Of a DNA stretch of 22,754 nt, positions 1-9,621 are shown piece after piece. How positions within the stretch are numbered: position 1 is the stretch's first letter; each line of letters starts with the position of its first letter. The stretch is taken from the NCBI GenBank assembly GCA_046296715.1, contig JBKBIN010000020.1:1-22754 (forward strand). The letters run 5' to 3'. Below the pieces are notes generated by a model. It saw only the letters and a program-made list of their open reading frames with translations, was not told where the DNA came from and searched no databases. The position numbers and the translations under genes were made by a program. This DNA comes from Candidatus Ratteibacteria bacterium (lineage in GTDB: Bacteria > Ratteibacteria > UBA8468 > B48-G9 > JAFGKM01).

Positions 1-185
1 ATTTTAACTATTTTATCACCATAATTTTCTTTTATAAAATCAATTACTTGTGAAAACCTCCTTTTTCTTTCATATCTATAATACCATATTATCTCCTGCA
101 TCCTTCTAAAATCCCTCTCTTTCACAAAAATCTTATATCTTGCTATACTTTTTGTAAAAACATGATAATAATTCTCAACTCCCAT
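1..185 (-). CDS. Putative REP-associated tyrosine transposase (RAYT-like, Y1/IS200-like HUH family), N-terminal fragment running off the window edge
   Basis: Not in the ORF track. SD AAGGAGG (197-191), ATG at 185-183, then an open frame to the edge: MGVENYYHVFTKSIARYKIFVKERDFRRMQEIIWYYRYERKRRFSQVIDFIKENYGDKIVK(I). The YYHVFxKSI...IF..E.DF.RM...YY...RFS...KIV.I pattern resembles the region preceding the 'AYCxMPxHxH' HUH motif of RAYT/Y1 transposases. The HUH motif and catalytic Tyr lie outside the window. Confidence 0.75.
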   Translation of the reverse strand, partial: MGVENYYHVFTKSIARYKIFVKERDFRRMQEIIWYYRYERKRRFSQVIDFIKENYGDKIVK

Positions 186-197
186 TCTAACCTCCTT

Positions 198-212
198 ACA
201 CCTACGAGGTGA
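198..212. repeat. REP-like hairpin repeat, copy 1 (ACACCTACGAGGTGA on +)
   Basis: CACCT-ACG-AGGTG stem-loop that is the exact reverse complement of copies 2 and 3. It extends imperfectly to 191-218 (CC-T-CCTT-A-CACCT acg AGGTG-AAGG-C-GG). Confidence 0.9.
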
Positions 213-222
213 AGGCGGAAGA

Positions 223-1263
223 TTAAAGAGAGACAAGGCATTTGATGACCCCATTCTTATATTCTGAAACAAGATTTAATGCCTCTTCAATTTTTTCAAA
301 AGGGTATTTATGCGTTATCATTTTTAAAAAAGGCAATTTTGATTTTTTCATCATATTTAATGCAATTTCAGTGCAAAAAGCACTTCTTCTCACATTTATA
401 AGTTTAAGTTCTTTCCTTCTCATTATATGTGCATCAAATTCAACTATATCTTCAGAAGGAATACCAACCAAAACGGACTTCCCACAGATTTTTGTAGTAT
501 GAATTACCTGCCTAAATGTTTCCCTTTTTCCTGCTGCTTCAAATGAAATATCAACTCCTCTATTATTTGTGAAATTTTTCACAATCTCTGCGATATCTTC
601 CTTTTTCGCATCAACAGTAAAATCTGCTCCTAACTGCCTTGCAAATTTAAGTCGCTCTTCTATTAAATCAGAAACAAAAATTTTATTTGCTCCACCTTCT
701 CTAACTGAAAACAAAATAGAAAGTCCAATAGGGCCTGCTCCTAAAATTACAACATCATCTCCAATTTCAAGTTGACTTAATTTTACTGCATAAACTCCAA
801 TAGCAAGCGGTTCAGACAAAACTCCTTCGTCATATCCAAGACCTTCAGGTATTTTTACAAGATTTTCTTCTGGCATCACAATATATTCTCTAAAAGCACC
901 ATTAATCGGAGGAGTTCCAAGAAATTTTACATAAGGACAGGTATTTGGTTTCCCTTTTTTACACGACTCACATTGTCCACAACTTATTCCCGGCTCAATT
1001 GCTACTTTATCTCCTTTTTTCAATTTTTTTACATCCTTTCCAACTTCAACAACCTCTCCACTTGCTTCATGTCCAAGAATTATTTTATCTTTTACAATCT
1101 GGTCACCAATTCTACCTTCCAAAAAATAATGAACATCAGAACCGCAAATCCCAACCGCTCTAATCCTTACAAGAACATCTTTTCCATTTTTAATTTCAGG
1201 ACATTTTTCTTCTTCAATCTCAATCTTTCTTTTTTCAACAAGATATGCTACTTTCATTTTCAT
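223..1263 (-). CDS. Zn-dependent medium-chain dehydrogenase, sorbitol/L-iditol 2-dehydrogenase-like
   Basis: GICGSDVH, LGHE, structural Zn motif CGQCESCKKGKPNTC, Rossmann GAGPIG. Confidence 0.88.
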   Translation of the reverse strand: MKMKVAYLVEKRKIEIEEEKCPEIKNGKDVLVRIRAVGICGSDVHYFLEGRIGDQIVKDKIILGHEASGEVVEVGKDVKKLKKGDKVAIEPGISCGQCESCKKGKPNTCPYVKFLGTPPINGAFREYIVMPEENLVKIPEGLGYDEGVLSEPLAIGVYAVKLSQLEIGDDVVILGAGPIGLSILFSVREGGANKIFVSDLIEERLKFARQLGADFTVDAKKEDIAEIVKNFTNNRGVDISFEAAGKRETFRQVIHTTKICGKSVLVGIPSEDIVEFDAHIMRRKELKLINVRRSAFCTEIALNMMKKSKLPFLKMITHKYPFEKIEEALNLVSEYKNGVIKCLVSL

Positions 1264-1274
1264 ATTTTATTTTT

Positions 1275-1610
1275 TTAGATTTTTGAATATTTTTCTGCAT
1301 AATCACCTATTACTGGCAATTTAAAATATTCGCCCTGAAAAGATTTAACAAGTAAAATTATCCAGATTACAGTTCCAACTAAATAAACAATTGGATAGAG
1401 AATTAAAGACAAGATTTTACCTAAAACTGGGATGAGAGATAAGATGTTCAGAAAAATATAAATTAAAGTTAAAGCACCGCTAAAAATTATACTTTGCATA
1501 GCATTGAATCTTATATATTGACTTTTCTTTTCTGTTAAAAAAATAATAAGCCCTGAAACCCATCCAAAAAAATAAGAAATAAAACTCATCGTCTTTTCCC
1601 TCTCCTCCAT
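1275..1610 (-). CDS. DUF4870-like small membrane protein
   Basis: Three hydrophobic segments, 'EKKSQYIRFNAMQS' and C-terminal 'GEYFKLPVIGDYAE' pattern, SD GAGGAGG. Confidence 0.75.
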   Translation of the reverse strand: MEEREKTMSFISYFFGWVSGLIIFLTEKKSQYIRFNAMQSIIFSGALTLIYIFLNILSLIPVLGKILSLILYPIVYLVGTVIWIILLVKSFQGEYFKLPVIGDYAEKYSKI

Positions 1611-1633
1611 TTCTCCTCCTCTTTTAAATTTTA

Positions 1634-1662
1634 ATTATATCATATAAAAACAGGCCTCTCAA
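1634..1662 (-). promoter_or_regulatory. sigma70-type promoter upstream of the DUF4870-dehydrogenase-(RAYT) unit
   Basis: TTGAGA (1662-1657) - 17 nt - TATAAT (1639-1634), with an extended TG. Confidence 0.6.
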
Positions 1663-3004
1663 TTAACTTTATCTTCTTCCAGTTCCCTTTATGAAATCTA
1701 ATAAAGAAAATAAATCCAATCAAAATTACATATAAAGTACCTATTGACCAACTTACAAAAATTCCATAATTTAAAATAAATGTGCATATATAGAGAGGAA
1801 TGAGAAAAATAAAAATTGAAGATAATGCAAAAACCAACATAATAAATTTTGTATCTCCGGCGCCTCTTAATCCAGAAAGAAAAATTACATTCATAGTATC
1901 AAAAATAGAATAAAAAGCAACAAATCTCAAAAGTATAATAGTTAAATCTCTAACTTCATTGAAATCAGCAGTATGAACTTTTGGCTTGAAAAATTTAATA
2001 TAAAAGTCAGGGAAAATAAGATAACTTAAAGCAATTAAACACATATATATAAATGTAATCCAAAATCCTATATATGTAATTTTTTCCCCAATTTCTGGTT
2101 TCCCTTTTCCTATATATTGACCAATGATTATTGAAACACCTGTCCCAATTCCTATCATTGGCATAAAAGCAATTGTATTTATATTAAATGCAATATTTGA
2201 AGATGAAAGAGGGATTACTCCCTGTCTACCTATTATAAGTAAAAAAATTGACCACACAGAGATATCAAGAAAAAACTGAATTCCGTTTGGAACACCATAT
2301 TTAACTAATCTTTTAAAAATTTCTGAATTTATTTTGAAATTTAAATTTCCAAAAACTCTATTATTTCTGTTAAAAAATAAAATCAAGTAAATTGAAAGTG
2401 AAACATAACCTGAAATAACTGTTGCAATTCCAGCACCTTTTATTCCCATTTCAGGAAATCCAAATTTGCCAAAAATAAGTATATAATCAAGAATTAAATT
2501 TATAGAAGTTTGAAGAAAACTTACAAAAAGAACAATTTTAGTTTTTCCCTGTCCTGAAAAGAAAGAAGAAACAGAAGCAGATCCAATACCAGCAAAAGCA
2601 CCTATACAAACAATCTGAAAATAGATTGTTTCATAATATAATACTTCTTTTTCATGACCGAAAATTTTAAATATTGTTGGAGCAAAAGGAATAAGTAAAA
2701 GATGAAAAATCCCTCCAATTAAAGCCCAGTATAATCCTTGCCACACAGTTTCGCCTATTTTTTCGTATTTCTTTGCACCATAATATTGAGCAGCAAATGT
2801 ATTTACAAAAGAGGCAGTCCCAATAAAAATACTTGTTGTCGTTAAATTTAAAAAACTTGCAGGTAAAACTGCAGCAAGTGCTTTTACTGAATACCACGAA
2901 ATAAACATTCTATCAACAAAATGCTGAATAGTCCAAATACTTGAACTCAAAATTAATGGAAGAGAGATCCTTAGAAGTTCTTTGGTATAGTTTCTGAAAA
3001 ACAT
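1640..3004 (-). CDS. MATE family efflux transporter
   Basis: About 12 TM segments, 'DRMFISW', 'LIFGKFGFPEMGIKGAGIATV', 'LRGAGDT'. Start moved to ATG 3004 (MFFRNY), which follows GAAGGGAG and removes the overlap with the upstream gene. Confidence 0.88.
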   Translation of the reverse strand: MFFRNYTKELLRISLPLILSSSIWTIQHFVDRMFISWYSVKALAAVLPASFLNLTTTSIFIGTASFVNTFAAQYYGAKKYEKIGETVWQGLYWALIGGIFHLLLIPFAPTIFKIFGHEKEVLYYETIYFQIVCIGAFAGIGSASVSSFFSGQGKTKIVLFVSFLQTSINLILDYILIFGKFGFPEMGIKGAGIATVISGYVSLSIYLILFFNRNNRVFGNLNFKINSEIFKRLVKYGVPNGIQFFLDISVWSIFLLIIGRQGVIPLSSSNIAFNINTIAFMPMIGIGTGVSIIIGQYIGKGKPEIGEKITYIGFWITFIYMCLIALSYLIFPDFYIKFFKPKVHTADFNEVRDLTIILLRFVAFYSIFDTMNVIFLSGLRGAGDTKFIMLVFALSSIFIFLIPLYICTFILNYGIFVSWSIGTLYVILIGFIFFIRFHKGNWKKIKLIERPVFI

Positions 3005-3014
3005 TCTCCCTTCT

Positions 3015-4013
3015 TCATTTAAAATTTCGTAAAATCGCAGCAAGATTATAAGCCATCTCCTCAAATCCCTGTGAACAAGGATGTATTCTGTCTGTCATTA
3101 AGCCCCTTACATCTTTCAATATATCAAAACCAGAAATATGGATTACATTCTTTTTATTTATTTCTTCTACTTTGTTTTTCACAATTTCTCTAAATTTTTT
3201 CTGTTTATCCTGATTATCAAAGTCCATATAGAATGGGAAGATATCAATAAAAAATAAGTTTTTATCAGGATTTTCACTAACTATTTTCTCAATAAAATAA
3301 TCAACTCTTTTCTTAAATTCTTCTACTTCAAAACCACCAACCATATTAACTCCAAGTTCAAAAACACCAAAATCCCAGTCATCTCTTTTAGCAATATAAT
3401 CTGCAATCTCTTTTTCAAGATGAGCACCACCACCCAAACCAAGATTTATAGCATCCATACCAAGAATATAAGCAGTTTTTGCTACATAAGTATAACTTGG
3501 AACAATTGAAAAGCCGCCATGAGTAATTGATGAACCATAAGCAATAAATCTTTCATCTGGAACTTGGTGTTTTTTAGGTATCTCAAATTCTCCTTCAATA
3601 TCTACAATTCTTATATCTACTAAATGAGGCAGAATAATTCTTACAACCTCTGGATCAAATTTCAACTTTTTTTCTTCCTTTAATTTTTTTAATTTTTCAA
3701 GATTCTGAGGATAACAAATCTCAATTATAGTCAGATTTTCATTTATGTAATACCATTTTTCAAAAAAATCACCAAAATAAATCTCACATATTCCATTTCT
3801 TAAAACTATCTCTGAACTAACTTTCATAACTATTTTTGCCTTTTCACTTTTCAAATTAAACCTTAATTCAGACCCTGCTGGCATAAGTGCTCTTGTTTTT
3901 GCTCCTTCATTCAATTTTTCTCTCACTCTTTCAGGAAGCCGGGATAATTGAAGACCATCTGATTTCTCAAAAATTTCCTCAACATTATAAAACTCAATAT
4001 TTTTATAAACCAT
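3015..4013 (-). CDS. SGNH/GDSL hydrolase family protein
   Basis: Block I YGSSITHG, NLGLGG, block III LGVN, block V DRIHP, SD AAGGAGGT. Confidence 0.8.
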   Translation of the reverse strand: MVYKNIEFYNVEEIFEKSDGLQLSRLPERVREKLNEGAKTRALMPAGSELRFNLKSEKAKIVMKVSSEIVLRNGICEIYFGDFFEKWYYINENLTIIEICYPQNLEKLKKLKEEKKLKFDPEVVRIILPHLVDIRIVDIEGEFEIPKKHQVPDERFIAYGSSITHGGFSIVPSYTYVAKTAYILGMDAINLGLGGGAHLEKEIADYIAKRDDWDFGVFELGVNMVGGFEVEEFKKRVDYFIEKIVSENPDKNLFFIDIFPFYMDFDNQDKQKKFREIVKNKVEEINKKNVIHISGFDILKDVRGLMTDRIHPCSQGFEEMAYNLAAILRNFK

Positions 4014-4025
4014 ATTTACCTCCTT

Positions 4026-4040
4026 TCACCTCGTAGGTGT
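4026..4040. repeat. REP-like hairpin repeat, copy 2 (TCACCTCGTAGGTGT)
   Basis: Identical 15-mer in the 4014-4069 intergenic gap, directly abutting the SD of the SGNH gene. Confidence 0.9.
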
Positions 4041-4069
4041 TAGTGGGAAATTGTTGTCTATCAAGGAAT

Positions 4070-4882
4070 TTAATAATCATGTTTGGAAAGAGAAACTAAA
4101 AGATTAAGTTTAATTTTTATCGTAAGTGTTTCTGACTTTTTTCTTTTTATATCAGGAGATGGTGGGACCTCAAATTTTGTATTTAAATCAATATTAAAAT
4201 TCCCTTCAAAATTGATTATCTCACCTTCATTTTCATTAAATATAAAACTACCTTTTGAAAAATTTTTTCCATCAAATGTTATCTTTGTATCATTATCTTT
4301 TTTTGTCTCTTTTATTGTTTGAACACCTGAAAGTTGAATTATACTTGATCTTTCTTTTTTTTCATATGAATAGTTAAACTCAAGATTACACATAGGAATT
4401 CCAGGGAAATTAAAAGCAGGTATTACTTGTTTCCACTTTTTCACAGTAGTTACTTTGTCCGGGAAGACAGGGAGAAGTTTTAAAACTTGAGAAAGAGTTA
4501 AAATACCTTTATTTGATTCTGTTATTTCAATTATTTCACCATTTTTTTTCATCTTTACAAAGTTGATTGATATTACAGAAGAAATTCCTGTTTCAACATT
4601 AGTTTTATCCTCAATCACTTCTTGATTAATTTTTACAAAGGTTTTAAATGGAGTTATTTTTAGATTATATATTTCATCTTCAACTCCAACTGTCTCAATT
4701 TTCAAATTTCCTTTCACAAAAACATTCATCTTTTCATTTGTGCCTGGATAGGTCAAAAAAACATCACCCTTAATCTGAAATGAATAATAAAGTGGTTTTG
4801 ATTGTTGAAATTTATATTCAACTTGCGAAAATAGAAATATCGGAGAAAAAAATAAAAAAATAAACATCACCCTTTTTCTCAT
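4070..4882 (-). CDS. Hypothetical exported protein
   Basis: Signal-peptide-like N-terminus MRKRVMFIFLFFSPIFLFS, beta-rich-looking body, tight packing with its neighbours. Confidence 0.7.
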   Translation of the reverse strand: MRKRVMFIFLFFSPIFLFSQVEYKFQQSKPLYYSFQIKGDVFLTYPGTNEKMNVFVKGNLKIETVGVEDEIYNLKITPFKTFVKINQEVIEDKTNVETGISSVISINFVKMKKNGEIIEITESNKGILTLSQVLKLLPVFPDKVTTVKKWKQVIPAFNFPGIPMCNLEFNYSYEKKERSSIIQLSGVQTIKETKKDNDTKITFDGKNFSKGSFIFNENEGEIINFEGNFNIDLNTKFEVPPSPDIKRKKSETLTIKIKLNLLVSLSKHDY

Positions 4883-4883
4883 T

Positions 4884-6029
4884 TTAGTTCTCCTTTACAA
4901 ATTCATTTATTCTATCAACTGCTTTTTTAAGTTGCTCTATACTTACAGCATAAGATATTCTTATATAATTGTCAACTCCAAACTCACATCCTGGAACAAC
5001 AGCAACAAGTTTCTCTGTAAGTAATCTTTCGGCAAACTTATTAGAATCTATATCTTTAAAATTTAAAAAGATATAGAAAGCCCCTTCAGGATATGGATAT
5101 TTAATTTCTTTTGAAAGATTATTTACAAGAAAATTTCTTCTTTTTTTAAATTCAATTATCATATTACCAAACAATCTTTCTCCTTCTTTTAAAGCAAAAA
5201 TAGAACTTTTCTGAGAAATTGTTGAAGGAGCAGATGTTGTCTGTCCCTGTATTTTTCCAATAGCATCAGCAATTTCTCTTTTTGAAGCAGTATAACCAAT
5301 TCTCCATCCAGTCATAGCAAATGTTTTTGAAACACCATTAACTAAAATTGTTAAATCTTTTATTTCTTTTCCTAAGGATGCAATTGAAATAAACTTTTTA
5401 TCAAAAACAATTTTCTCATATACTTCATCAGATATGCACAAAATTTTATTGGAAACAATTATTTCTGCTAATTTTTCAAGTTCATCCTTTTTATATAAAA
5501 TACCTGTTGGATTAGAAGGGCTATTCAATATTAACGCTTTTGTCCTTTTTGTTATTTTTTTCTTCAAGTCATCTAAATCTATTTTAAATTTCTCATTATA
5601 TCTACAAAATACAGGAATACCACCACATATAGAAATCATTGCAGGATAACTTACCCAATAAGGAACAGGGACAATAACTTCATCCCCAGGATTTAAAATC
5701 GCAAGAAATATATTAAAAAGAGAGTGTTTTGCCCCATTTGAAACAACTATCTCTTCTGGTTCATATTTAAGATTATTTTCTTTTTCAAGTTTTTCACAAA
5801 TTGTCTCCCTCAATTCTTTTAAACCTTTTTCTTCAGTATATTTTGTATATCCATCCTTCATTGCTTTGCATGCAAAATCTATTATTTCTTCCGGTGTCTG
5901 AAAATCAGGTTCTCCGACTGTTAAATTTATAACATCAAGACCACTATCTTTCATCTCTTTTGCTTTTTTATTTAAAGCCATTGTTGCTGATGATTTTAGT
6001 GTCTTGGCTCTTTCAGATAGGTATTCCAT
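4884..6029 (-). CDS. aspC: PLP-dependent class I aminotransferase (aspartate aminotransferase-like)
   Basis: GEPDF, NSPSNPTG, SDEVY, NGVSKTFAMTGWRIG, GAFY, IRISYA. Confidence 0.85.
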   Translation of the reverse strand: MEYLSERAKTLKSSATMALNKKAKEMKDSGLDVINLTVGEPDFQTPEEIIDFACKAMKDGYTKYTEEKGLKELRETICEKLEKENNLKYEPEEIVVSNGAKHSLFNIFLAILNPGDEVIVPVPYWVSYPAMISICGGIPVFCRYNEKFKIDLDDLKKKITKRTKALILNSPSNPTGILYKKDELEKLAEIIVSNKILCISDEVYEKIVFDKKFISIASLGKEIKDLTILVNGVSKTFAMTGWRIGYTASKREIADAIGKIQGQTTSAPSTISQKSSIFALKEGERLFGNMIIEFKKRRNFLVNNLSKEIKYPYPEGAFYIFLNFKDIDSNKFAERLLTEKLVAVVPGCEFGVDNYIRISYAVSIEQLKKAVDRINEFVKEN

Positions 6030-6049
6030 ATCAACTCCTTTTTATTTTT

Positions 6050-7936
6050 CTAAATAAATTTTTCAGGAGAAATGTAATCCCCAAATTTTTCCCTTGCTTT
6101 CAATAATCTTTCTTTTTGTTCTTGAAGAACTTTAAAAACTTCACTGGGTGCATCTTCTATTTTTTCTTTTACAAATTTTATAACTCTTTCAACTTTTGAT
6201 ATATTTTCTAAAACTCTTATTTTAAACTGTTCAATATAGTCATCTTTTGAATATTCTTTTTTCAAGACATCATTAAATAAAATTTTCAAATCATCATAAA
6301 GTGGAATAAGCCCTGTAGGAGTTTCTATAGCCTTCACATCATTATGAATACGAAGTTCCATCCATTTAATCCAAACATGTTTGTCTTTCCTTGAATTTAA
6401 AAAATTACCTGTTTTTAAGTCTTTAAGAAAATAATTTACACCAAAAACAAGTGGGACTTTTCTTAACTTTCTTCCAAATTCAATATAATCTTTTATATAT
6501 TTACCAAGCGGAATAGAAATAAAATCTTGTATACTCATTATATTTATCTCATATTTACCTTCCTGTCCAACAATAGCAAAGGTTGTTTCTGTTTCAAGTG
6601 CAACTCCATACGCTATTATTCCATGAACCCAATCAAAACCTTGTTGAACAGGAACATAACCTCTATAATCTCTTCCTCCAAAGATAATACCTCCAAGCTC
6701 AACACCATTTGGATTTTCAAGTTCTTCATCACAATTTGGAAGTGCCTTTAAAGATATTGTGTACCTTGCGTTTTTATGAGATGGCAATATTTCTTCTTCA
6801 TTTTCATCTTTTTTACCTTTATACCATTTTCCTGAATAATTTATTCCCTCTTTAGGTAGTTCACATCCCATATCAAGCCACCAAACTTTTCCATCTTTTA
6901 TAAGAACATTTGAAAATATTATTTCATTTGGAGATGTTATTGTTTTAAATATTAAAGGGTCATCAACAGGATTAACTCCTTGAATTATTCCGAAAATTCC
7001 ACATTCAACATTTACTGCTCTACATACCCCATCAATATTTCTAACATAAGCAAGGTCATCCGAAAGTATCTTTTCTCCTTCAAGCATAGCAGTTGAAGTT
7101 TTCCCACAAGCACTTGGAAAAGCACCAGCAAGATATGTTTTTCTTCCGCCTGGACCATGAACTCCAATTATCATAAAATGTTCTGCAAGCCATCCTTCAT
7201 TATGTGCCTTTCTTATCGCAAGCCTTAAAGCAAGTTTTTTAAATCCTATGGAATTTCCTGCATACTGAGTATTAACACTATAAACTGTATTTTCAACATA
7301 ATCTATATAAATCCTCTTTTTATCATAGTTTTTGCTTGTCATATTTTCATCAAGTTGGCCTGCTGAATGTAATGTAAAGAAGATATCTATTTTATCATCA
7401 ATCTCTAAAAATTTTTTATAGCCATGCCTGTATAATAAATCAACTGAATGAGCAACATACCAACTATCAGTGCATTCAATACAGGGAATAGCAAAAATGG
7501 AATCTGAAGGTCCTAAGACTAAAAATCTAACTATCATTGTTTTACCTTTCATTGATCCATTTAGCAAACTTTTTATTTCATTTAAACCTTCTTCTCTATC
7601 TATTTGATTTAAAGCAGAACTTAATTTATCACCTTTGGGAACAAGAAATTTTGTAACTTCTCTATCTCTGCCCTGATCATAATATCCGTCAAAATGGAAA
7701 GTATGTCCTGGTGTTAATAAAGCAGCACTTTCTTCTTTACTAACAATTGCCATATTTTTTATATATGCAATTTCATCGGGTGTATCACTGCATATAAAAA
7801 TATCATCTGGTTGACATAATGAAATACTATCTGCAATAAACTTAAGTACTTTTTGACTCTTTATTTTTTTCAATTTTTCAAACTCTTCTTTTTTTAATTT
7901 TTTTTCAAAAATCTGGGTATAATAATCCTCCATCAT
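6050..7936 (-). CDS. pckG: Phosphoenolpyruvate carboxykinase (GTP)
   Basis: GAFPSACGKT P-loop, WLAEH, DD metal motif, ECGIFG, HKNARY, IIFGGR, VNYF, SD AAGGAGG. Confidence 0.92.
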   Translation of the reverse strand: MMEDYYTQIFEKKLKKEEFEKLKKIKSQKVLKFIADSISLCQPDDIFICSDTPDEIAYIKNMAIVSKEESAALLTPGHTFHFDGYYDQGRDREVTKFLVPKGDKLSSALNQIDREEGLNEIKSLLNGSMKGKTMIVRFLVLGPSDSIFAIPCIECTDSWYVAHSVDLLYRHGYKKFLEIDDKIDIFFTLHSAGQLDENMTSKNYDKKRIYIDYVENTVYSVNTQYAGNSIGFKKLALRLAIRKAHNEGWLAEHFMIIGVHGPGGRKTYLAGAFPSACGKTSTAMLEGEKILSDDLAYVRNIDGVCRAVNVECGIFGIIQGVNPVDDPLIFKTITSPNEIIFSNVLIKDGKVWWLDMGCELPKEGINYSGKWYKGKKDENEEEILPSHKNARYTISLKALPNCDEELENPNGVELGGIIFGGRDYRGYVPVQQGFDWVHGIIAYGVALETETTFAIVGQEGKYEINIMSIQDFISIPLGKYIKDYIEFGRKLRKVPLVFGVNYFLKDLKTGNFLNSRKDKHVWIKWMELRIHNDVKAIETPTGLIPLYDDLKILFNDVLKKEYSKDDYIEQFKIRVLENISKVERVIKFVKEKIEDAPSEVFKVLQEQKERLLKAREKFGDYISPEKFI

Positions 7937-7955
7937 TTCCTCCTTTTGGACTTTT

Positions 7956-7971
7956 TTTGTAAATTTACAAA
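7956..7971. promoter_or_regulatory. Perfect 16-bp palindrome (TTTGTAAATTTACAAA), candidate operator of pckG
   Basis: Lies between the predicted promoter and the pckG SD. Confidence 0.4.
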
Positions 7972-7988
7972 GAATTAGATTGAAGTAT

Positions 7989-8018
7989 ATTTTAATATCT
8001 ATTTTATTTTTCTGTCAA
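7989..8018 (-). promoter_or_regulatory. sigma70-type promoter for pckG-aspC
   Basis: TTGACA (8018-8013) - 18 nt - TAAAAT (7994-7989). Confidence 0.55.
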
Positions 8019-8068
8019 ATTTTTAAATCACTTTTTGAAAACCCTTATTCTTATTAGTTTTTCCAATG

Positions 8069-8083
8069 TCACCTCGTAGGTGT
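8069..8083. repeat. REP-like hairpin repeat, copy 3 (TCACCTCGTAGGTGT)
   Basis: Identical 15-mer. On the minus strand it reads ACA CCT ACG AGG TGA = T-P-T-R-stop of the LysM gene. Confidence 0.9.
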
Positions 8084-8971
8084 AGATGGAAGTAGAAGTT
8101 TTTGGCCAGGATAGATAATATCTGATTTTAAATTATTCAATTTCTTTATTTCATTCACAGAAGTATTATATTTTTTTGCAATTAATGATAAATGTTCTCC
8201 TTTCTGCACTATATGATATCTTTCTTTCCCTGTTTTTAGTATAGATTTTGCAGTTTCAGATGTCGGTTCTATTCTCTGCTCTGAAATTTGCATTTTCAGT
8301 TGGTGAATCTCACTTTCATGTCTTATCAATTCTTCTAAAAATGTTTTTGTAACTTCATTAATTTTTTTATCCAATTGATTTATTCTTTCATCTATCTGAT
8401 CAATCTTCTTTGGGAAATCCTGTAATGTTGCTGCAATCTTAATCTGTGAATCTCTTAAATTTAGTATATCTGTTTTAATATTTGATTGATTTTCTATTAA
8501 ACTTTGATACAAATTGGCTGTCTTTGAAGATAGGTCATTATAAATCAATTTCACACCTTCTATATCTTTTTTTATTCCTTCAATATCCTTTTTTAACTCA
8601 ATATTTTTTTCAATAAACTCCTCACTCAATTTTTTTATTTTCTCAGAATATTCAAAATTGCTTTCGTCTATTTTGCCTTTTGCACTTTTAATTTCATCTT
8701 TTAAATTACTTATTTCATTGGTTAAAATTATTATTTTATCATTAATTTCATCTGTGTTTTTCTTAATTTTTTCGTCACTCTGCTTATAATCGGTTTCTAT
8801 TTTATTAAATTTTTCACCTATTTGTTTTACAGTTGCATAAAAATCATTTTCTAAATTATTTATTTTCTCCTTAATTGCATCTATATCATCTTTTGTAGCA
8901 ATATCTGCACAATTATTAAAAATTAAAACAACCCCACCTAATAAAATTGTTGTAAGGATTTTTTTTCTCAT
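8069..8971 (-). CDS. Coiled-coil putative lipoprotein with C-terminal LysM domain
   Basis: Signal peptide ending FNNC, long heptad region, LysM 'YHIVQKGEHLSLIAKKYNTSVNEIKKLNNLKSDIIYPGQKLLLP', 4-nt overlap with pal. Confidence 0.85.
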   Translation of the reverse strand: MRKKILTTILLGGVVLIFNNCADIATKDDIDAIKEKINNLENDFYATVKQIGEKFNKIETDYKQSDEKIKKNTDEINDKIIILTNEISNLKDEIKSAKGKIDESNFEYSEKIKKLSEEFIEKNIELKKDIEGIKKDIEGVKLIYNDLSSKTANLYQSLIENQSNIKTDILNLRDSQIKIAATLQDFPKKIDQIDERINQLDKKINEVTKTFLEELIRHESEIHQLKMQISEQRIEPTSETAKSILKTGKERYHIVQKGEHLSLIAKKYNTSVNEIKKLNNLKSDIIYPGQKLLLPSTPTR

Positions 8972-9621
8972 TTTTTCACTTCTATTTTAAATTCGCATCT
9001 TCTATTTTTTGCCCATGCCTCTTCGTTGCTTCCTATAACTGCTGGCATATCTTCTCCATAACTAACAGTATATAACCTTTTTGGAGAAACACCCATAACA
9101 ATAAGAAACCTTCTTGCACTTAATGCCCTCTGTTCTCCAAGGACAAGATTGTATTCTCTCGTTCCTCTTTCATCACAATGACCTTCAATTAAAATTTTAA
9201 CATCCTGATTTTTTAATAGATATTCTCCAATTTTTTTAAGTGTTTTTGCTGCATCCTCTCTTATATCATATTTATCAAAATCAAAGTAAATATTCTGGAA
9301 TATTTCTTTCAATTCTTCACTTATTTCTTCTGGTTTTACAAATTTTGCTTCAAGAGGTATAGGAGTGATTGGAATTTCTTCTCCTTTAATAACTTTTTTG
9401 ATTTCTTCTGGAGTTGCTTTCCCTTCTTCTGTCGGAACTTTTGTTTCTTCTGGTGTCTTTACTTCTTCTGGAGTTTTTGTTTCTTCTGGTTTAAGGATAC
9501 TTACAAGTTCTGGTTTTTTCTCTTTTTCCTCAACAACTTCCTTTTTTATCTTTTTTGGACAGACACAACCAACTAAACTAACTAATATAAACCCTACAAT
9601 CATATAATTCATCTTCTTCAT
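8968..9621 (-). CDS. pal: Peptidoglycan-associated lipoprotein (OmpA_C-like)
   Basis: Lipobox LVGC, IYFDFDKY, IEGHCDERGTREYNLVLGEQRA, SYGE, NRR. Start reassigned to 9621 (MKKMNY) after a GGGGGG SD. Confidence 0.92.
   Translation of the reverse strand: MKKMNYMIVGFILVSLVGCVCPKKIKKEVVEEKEKKPELVSILKPEETKTPEEVKTPEETKVPTEEGKATPEEIKKVIKGEEIPITPIPLEAKFVKPEEISEELKEIFQNIYFDFDKYDIREDAAKTLKKIGEYLLKNQDVKILIEGHCDERGTREYNLVLGEQRALSARRFLIVMGVSPKRLYTVSYGEDMPAVIGSNEEAWAKNRRCEFKIEVKK
9439..9492. repeat. Three degenerate 18-nt tandem repeats encoding the (K/T)PEE(T/V)K linker of Pal
   Basis: ttttgtttcttctggtgt / ctttacttcttctggagt / ttttgtttcttctggttt. Confidence 0.75.

Follow-up and report, generated by a model that had tools for sequence, protein, structure and literature searches.

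In this work we analysed a 22,754-nucleotide (nt) window, the contig JBKBIN010000020.1 of a Candidatus Ratteibacteria bacterium (assembly GCA_046296715.1). It begins inside the gene of a Y1/HUH nuclease from the superfamily of repetitive extragenic palindrome (REP)-associated tyrosine transposases (RAYTs), and it carries three copies of a hairpin repeat that is dispersed through the genome. We favour, with a probability of roughly 0.6, the explanation that this single-copy nuclease spreads its own repeat family and also overwrites hairpins that are already resident. The basic layout of a hairpin-flanked enzyme is already known; the value of the present case is the rewriting signal, which bears on the question of how REP-like repeats spread and stay uniform.

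The genome of the window (G000; 1.64 Mb in 117 contigs, 28% G+C) was compared with others, given G numbers here, and single loci have L numbers; the sequencing runs holding the window are hot-spring metagenomes. The closest records with a name bear the NCBI label Candidatus Omnitrophota. An earlier, sequence-only reading of the window had reported a 15-mer with three exact copies, at 198–212 (minus strand), 4026–4040 and 8069–8083 (both plus strand). These were found as described, with no further copy at up to three mismatches in the window and 0.09 expected in shuffles. The 8/15 G+C, the 5-bp stem, the 3-nt loop and the 12 nt to the ATG at 185 were also confirmed. The supposedly conserved, non-pairing ends, however, vary, and the invariant part is the 13-nt core CACCT-CGT-AGGTG, made of the stem and the loop. 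The whole G000 assembly contains this 13-mer 33 times exactly, once with one mismatch and six times with two; outside the 33 exact cores the bases are T..T in 15 copies, A..T in 11, T..A in four, C..G in two and A..A in one. As the sequence-only reading had proposed, the repeat is thus dispersed genome-wide. All G000 copies are solitary, the closest two being 237 nt apart with a tRNA between them and the next-closest gap measuring 1,658 nt. G000 has no doublets of the REPIN or BIME type, and a few close pairs occur in G001 and G005.

Copies occupy gene ends or intergenic gaps, and none of the 33 lies deep within a gene according to a crude open reading frame (ORF) call with 93% coding. The proposed placement at gene junctions is correct to this extent, but three G000 copies overlap the last codons of genes, and one of them, window copy 3, is not intergenic at all and supplies the stop of a LysM gene. 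For the 30 sites with both neighbours known, taken from 33 exact and 3 variant copies, convergent gaps are enriched (7/30 against 37/450 gaps genome-wide, p 0.014) and divergent gaps are not (4/30 against 133/450). The repeat is hence not confined to promoters. For many copies a tRNA gene is found no more than about 100 nt away, and several sit right at its 3' end (for example G000:C14:10683, C25:13218, C9:38983 and 39220, C5:42821, and loci L069, L075, L079, L228 and L261). An Rfam search of window positions 1–9000 gave no match, and none of the three window copies was called as an intrinsic terminator.

The repeat as a whole is polar and about 55 nt long: a conserved arm of 34–37 nt makes up one side, the core forms the 3' tip, and the "very compact 15-bp repeat" of the sequence-only reading is merely this tip. 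We derived the unit length from the agreement within nine near-identical copy pairs, which extends from about -34/-38 through the core or to +3..+8, and from alignments of filled with empty sites, in which the lengths differ by about 40–60 nt and a clear target duplication is absent. Arm orientation was taken from a profile learned on the copies of four genomes; its strongest positions are -31/-30 A, -27 C, -23 G, -17 C, -11 T and -8/-7 C. On the other side, 3' of the core, a short G-rich stretch (+7, +8) is predicted to pair with -8/-7 into a longer, bulged stem. Relative to the arm, the loop reads CGT in 22 G000 copies and ACG in 11. A scan of G000 with the arm profile found no decayed copies; synteny comparison shows two, plus one copy with a 1-nt deletion. 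In a set of 165 copies, which takes in 23 of the 32 G001 cores, a GT[AG]G 5' foot is present once within 12 nt and six times within 40 nt. GTAG had indeed not been regarded as a 5' foot before, and the loops of a paralogue's repeats, described below, lack it. CT at -37 (27 of 123 copies, 4% background) resembles the cut site of TnpA-REP, but it is confounded by reverse-strand Shine–Dalgarno sequences and may serve as a lead only. The short side is the ribosome-binding site of at least 4 of 33 genes, three by an automatic test and in addition the nuclease gene; a general role as ribosome-binding site was rejected with only 3/33 copies passing that test.

The rewriting signal is found at old sites shared between genomes. 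G000 and G006, with an identity of 87% (70% when 5,635 four-fold sites are taken), have 11 intact sites in common, where the core is identical, the orientation is the same and the site-specific long arms are recognisable. At these sites, the core-adjacent positions -3..-1 and +1..+2 match in 6 of 55 cases. G006 has G/C at 46 of the 55 positions, and G000 has G/C at two of those 46. As a control, G000 keeps G/C at 9 of 21 four-fold sites at which G006 and an outgroup share it (Fisher p 2.5e-4, with positions that are not independent). The -3 base is T in 26/33 copies of G000 and G in 29/30 copies of G006, and 2/33 G000 copies have G/C at -1. Since the flanks in G005 and G001 are also G/C, the A/T flanks are likely derived. 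G000 and G004 both have the A/T type, and at their 8 shared sites the flanks match at 18 of 40 positions. Loops changed as well. At one fully collinear and four one-side-anchored sites, the loop is of type B in G005/G001 and of type A in G000, with the arm kept. At one site (L056) the loop is flipped between G006 and G000/G004, and one duplicate pair in G001 differs at all three loop bases.

The nuclease gene is cut off by the contig end. Full-length orthologues have 205–208 amino acids (aa), with H71-L-H73, W110 and Y131 in the numbering of L002. The 61-aa window fragment is 85% identical to L002 (G004), 80% to L003 (G006), 76% and 56% to the G005 proteins and 61% and 61% to the G001 proteins. 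Close homologues contain PTHLH and WES (6/6 each), YIHLNP (5/6, with YHHLNP in one) and FSSY. By itself, the fragment gave no match in a Y1 profile search, but the orthologues bear out the sequence-only assignment to the Y1 family: all five full-length homologues tested score above the cut-off of PF01797, and the HUH motif and the tyrosine are present. E. coli TnpA-REP (4ER8) is both the closest solved structure by profile and the top fold match of an AlphaFold model of L002 (predicted local distance difference test, pLDDT, 89). The RAYT-like nature of the ORF is supported in this sense; its filing with the canonical RAYT/REP systems is not, in view of subclass 2.1 motifs (discussed below) and of scores of 66.5 (L002), 65.8 (L003) and 64.4 bits (L015) with the RAYT model NF047646 of NCBIfam, the cut-off of which is 80 bits. 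A search for a C-terminal helix-turn-helix (HTH; Bac_DnaA_C, HTH_23, HTH_28) returned only Y1_Tnp matches at E 0.01, and the C-terminus of the L002 model consists of three short helices. The family comprises 676 representatives at E 1e-30.

G000 contains one match to the nuclease, i.e., the gene is single-copy. The neighbourhood near the dehydrogenase and panC genes is stable in congeners, and no neighbour of tnpB size occurs in the loci read. The gene looks resident and mostly vertically inherited rather than part of an insertion sequence (IS). The remainder of the G000 nuclease gene and panC are not in the assembly. On a contig of run X2, panC is joined to the dehydrogenase gene without a nuclease between them, and G002 and G008 have different neighbours at the dehydrogenase locus. 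We also considered an in-frame third hairpin inside the gene and rejected it; it is absent in 6/6 close homologues and present in the L013/L014 clade.

Enzyme and repeat are linked across genomes. The hairpin is found on both sides of the gene in all six close loci (L002–L005, L015, L016), which agrees with the earlier expectation of a flanked gene, downstream copies included. Judged by their arms, the flanking copies are direct in L002/L003 and inverted in the G001 and G005 loci. Exact 13-mers number 33 in G000, 30 in G006, 29 in G004, 10 in G003, 8 in G005 and 7 in G001, and at most two in each of the remaining 35 of 41 genomes, with none for a reversed control; five of the six core-rich genomes have the enzyme. 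The tree of close homologues separates a type A (99/99) from a type B (99/98). G005 and G001 hold both paralogues together with cores that have other loops (31/39 in G005), G000 holds none of these, and the loop type tracks the enzyme paralogue. A metagenome scan with the core gave 121 loci, none with a Y1 match, and the matches were mostly due to chance.

When 29 G004 sites were scored in G000, 9 were filled, 8 empty, 4 at breakpoints, 5 in larger indels and 3 undetermined; for 30 G006 sites the numbers were 11, 8, 4, 2 and 5. Empty orthologous sites, which the sequence-only reading had suggested looking for in relatives, are hence seen in some cases, although 3 of the 16 scored as empty in G000 turned out to be damaged copies. 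Rearrangement or cassette hot spots at hairpins were considered too and found no support.

How might the enzyme change resident hairpins? TnpA-REP and the IS608 enzyme are known to bind a folded hairpin strand-specifically, to cleave on its 5' or 3' side and to transfer the strand (PMC8266576). By analogy, we infer that the nuclease acts on hairpin DNA. It would bind the folded hairpin on single-stranded DNA, cleave via a 5'-phosphotyrosine and rejoin the ends. If cuts fell about 35–37 nt from the core on the 5' side and a few bases from it on the 3' side, the whole unit would move. Strand exchange between two resident copies would instead replace a short patch, about -8 to +3 with the loop included, and the site would retain its own long arm. 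After a change of the enzyme allele, every old chromosomal site could be updated to the new type in this way, with position and arm kept. That a "repeat editor" of the Group 1/TIRYT type, as defined below, pastes a hairpin patch of about 25 nt between copies by single-strand exchange is a tentative proposal, which we rate slightly short of even odds. If true, this would amount to a gene conversion driven by the enzyme and directed to particular sites, and it would account for a REP-like family that stays uniform although its members do not move. In the literature examined, there is no tested substrate for any Group 1/TIRYT enzyme. The present system is small (about 30 sites). Its flanks vary naturally between A/T and G/C, its loops fall into two classes that go with two paralogues, and it allows predictions at base level about the substrate, the region of the cuts and the size of the patch.

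The main rival explanation, which we consider unlikely, does without rewriting. Here, old copies would be under selection at each site for binding of the enzyme or of a host factor, and flanks and loops would have tracked a shift in specificity by point mutation. The persistence of site-specific long arms at shared sites fits this well, and so do cores that stay perfect despite 13% divergence, the short sides used as ribosome-binding sites and the enzyme residues F26 and Q46, common to G000 and G004, the two genomes with A/T flanks. However, about five changes would be needed at each of the 11 sites, with few intermediates. Moreover, three-base loop swaps, the loop flip and the whole-loop difference in a duplicate pair look like block replacement, and G000 differs from G004 at many flank positions despite their common A/T type. 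If unconstrained flanks had merely drifted towards A/T in the lineage of G000 and G004, this could account for the G+C of the four core-adjacent bases, 0.28 in both genomes and thus equal to the genome value. But drift alone fails the neutral control, with G/C kept at 2 of 46 flank positions compared to 9 of 21 control sites, and the new flanks are non-random at -3 and -1; with loop swaps left unexplained in addition, we find drift highly improbable.

The 13-mer might also be a transcription-factor operator or a chromosome-organising site, with the nuclease gene as just one member of the regulon. It is indeed a short palindrome, conserved at orthologous sites and often near TTGAC-like boxes. 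Against an operator speak the enrichment in convergent but not divergent gaps, the overlap with stop codons and tRNA 3' ends, the flanking of the nuclease gene on both sides in every close locus, the gain or loss of the 55-nt unit as a block and the fact that further clades of the enzyme within the host family go with separate, different palindromes. We hence give this idea hardly any credence.

Overwriting by the nuclease thus remains the explanation that we prefer, and several points weigh against it. The in-step pattern could also arise from strong selection acting on every site, and the neutral control set is small with its 21 sites. The arm orientation was learned from the same copies that it describes. 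For the window gene itself, the HUH motif and the catalytic tyrosine are unassembled, as the contig stops at codon 61, and run X1, which may be the source, yielded short pieces that cover the HUH region, stem from at least two organisms and are unassignable to G000. In G003, with its 10–11 cores, neither the enzyme nor the dehydrogenase locus was found. The genomes are kin, and the co-occurrence of enzyme and repeat therefore represents few independent events. Many sites scored as empty in G000 may be losses, among them several at which two or three of the other genomes have a copy, and the edges of empty sites are ragged at 87% identity. There is no lagging-strand bias (17/33 when judged from local GC skew, which is a rough proxy as long as the assembly is fragmented), and no excess of rearrangements at hairpins, with 10/42 sites discordant compared to 4/10 control junctions (p 0.43).

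The system works like REP/RAYT but departs from the canonical form in lacking the GTAG foot and the doublets and in its NCBIfam score. From its sequence, the enzyme likely is of a subclass 2.1, Group 1 or TIRYT-like type and not a canonical RAYT. It matches the motifs W[EQ], Y[IV]HLNP and SS of TnpA-Y1 subclass 2.1 (Quentin et al. 2018, PMC6006769) but has THLH instead of the NH[VYF]H in Table 1 of that work, where YIELNP is given as an alternative to Y[IV]HLNP. In BLAST, identity is 38% to a plasmid protein with 2.1 motifs and 26% to E. coli RayT, the two subclass 2.1 references used in this work being assigned by motif only. A tree of 24 rows places RayT of E. coli and the two references on long branches; according to a warning of the tool, these branches meet. 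Subclass 2.1 corresponds to Group 1 of the RAYTs (Bertels et al. 2017, PMC5581495), a group said to lack REPINs, and probably to the TIRYTs of Di Nocera et al. 2013 (PMC3733652). Quentin et al. (PMC6006769) did not find REP-like structures in the vicinity of subclass 2.1 genes. The present enzyme gene, next to which a hairpin with a polar arm can fold, runs counter to this statement; among the matching places in their Table S1, none of the four examined is the present repeat. With the TIRYTs and their TIRtrons (PMC3733652), our system shares a gene flanked by non-GTAG repeats, and some TIR families were described as moderately abundant and self-complementary. In contrast to TIRYTs, no C-terminal HTH was found, the motif GGGGWSAS is missing in all but 3 of 165 copies, and the terminal repeats of TIRYTs are inverted, unlike the direct flanking copies of L002/L003. 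We found no paper on this repeat family, in a search that covered neither figures nor some supplements (e.g., the TIR sequences of Di Nocera et al.).

E. coli TnpA-REP (RayT, 4ER8) has the fold and the HUH/YxxxNP core in common with our enzyme, and the E. coli REP/RAYT system likewise consists of a single resident gene flanked by its own repeat and a dispersed extragenic family. Unlike canonical REPs, the repeats described here are solitary, number tens instead of hundreds, have no GT[AG]G 5' foot and carry a conserved 5' arm, and the enzyme stays below the NF047646 cut-off. Individual paralogues go with repeat types of their own, as is the case for Group 3 RAYTs (Corneloup et al. 2021, PMC8266576), and like REP-Mb of Marinomonas (PMC8266576) the hairpin has a perfect 5-bp stem with loop bases that apparently matter. 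In Pseudomonas chlororaphis, REPINs at conserved extragenic sites may be overwritten (REPORTH, bioRxiv 10.1101/2024.10.14.618302). There, in Group 3, replacement is at the level of REPIN types; here it would be at base level, in a short patch, with the site's own arm kept. With IS200/IS605 elements (IS608, ISDra2), the system shares the Y1 fold and hairpins near both gene ends. It differs from them by YxxxNP in place of YxxxQ, by one copy per type per genome and by the lack of an adjoining tnpB in the loci read.

The features of the window are collected in Table 1. Sites corresponding to all three units are filled in both G004 and G006. The long arm of unit 1 extends over the stop codon of a Zn-dehydrogenase gene that lies upstream, and its short side contains the Shine–Dalgarno-like AGGAGG of the nuclease gene, predicted to pair in the lower stem. 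Similarly, the long arm of unit 2 overlaps the stop of a 270-aa gene, with the Shine–Dalgarno-like site of an SGNH-hydrolase gene (start 4013) in the short side. Unit 3 codes on its opposite strand for the last four codons and the TGA stop of the LysM gene at 8069–8971. In contigs of the runs X2 and X3, deletions of the SGNH-hydrolase gene (window 3060–4022) end within about 25 nt of unit 2, as judged from single low-depth contigs.

Table 1. Nuclease gene fragment and hairpin repeat units in the window.
Feature	Position	Strand	Description
Y1/HUH (RAYT/TIRYT-like) nuclease gene, first 61 codons	1..185	-	truncated by contig end
Repeat unit 1	190..248	-	long arm ~248-212, core 211-199, short side 198-190
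Repeat unit 2	4017..4075	-	long arm ~4075-4040, core 4039-4027, loop reversed relative to arm
Repeat unit 3	8033..8092	+	long arm ~8033-8069, core 8070-8082

Other enzyme clades in the host family come with their own palindromes (L007, L008, L010, L018, L011, L017, L013, L014, L020, L025). One of these palindromes occurs 22 times in G007, 28 times in G011 and 46 times in G020, the genomes that host its enzyme (control 0–2), and also 13–17 times in four further genomes; that of another clade has 11 copies in G016 and two orphan copies in G000. In G026, from the same order, CACC-N5-GGTG gives 126 matches compared to 40 in the control, possibly another hairpin family. Unrelated metagenome contigs with about 45% G+C (L103, L104, L105, L131) carry 2–4 clustered core copies in alternating orientation, with no Y1 gene within the fetched stretch.

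Some copies border accessory or duplicated DNA. As anecdotal cases, two accessory blocks in G000 lie between two direct copies with arms 28/30 identical: G000:C9:39220-42971 (L262), with a trio of a GntR regulator, a pilin-like and a GH42-like gene, is absent at the G006 site, where one copy is left, and G000:C8:7273-8943 (L263), with an apiosidase-like gene, is absent at the G007 site. Near-identical direct pairs 0.8–1 kb apart were found at L240 and L242 in G005 and at L087 in G001. G000 has the gene that the L242 pair encloses, but no hairpins with it, a sign of possible local hopping. An arm identity of 26/30 is reached by five linked pairs and by one of about 2,300 unlinked pairs. Finally, a duplicated gene together with its hairpin at G000:C8:13153-14065 is 98% identical to L037 in G004, compared to a background of 87%, and has C/G flanks; gene and hairpin are likely a recent transfer.

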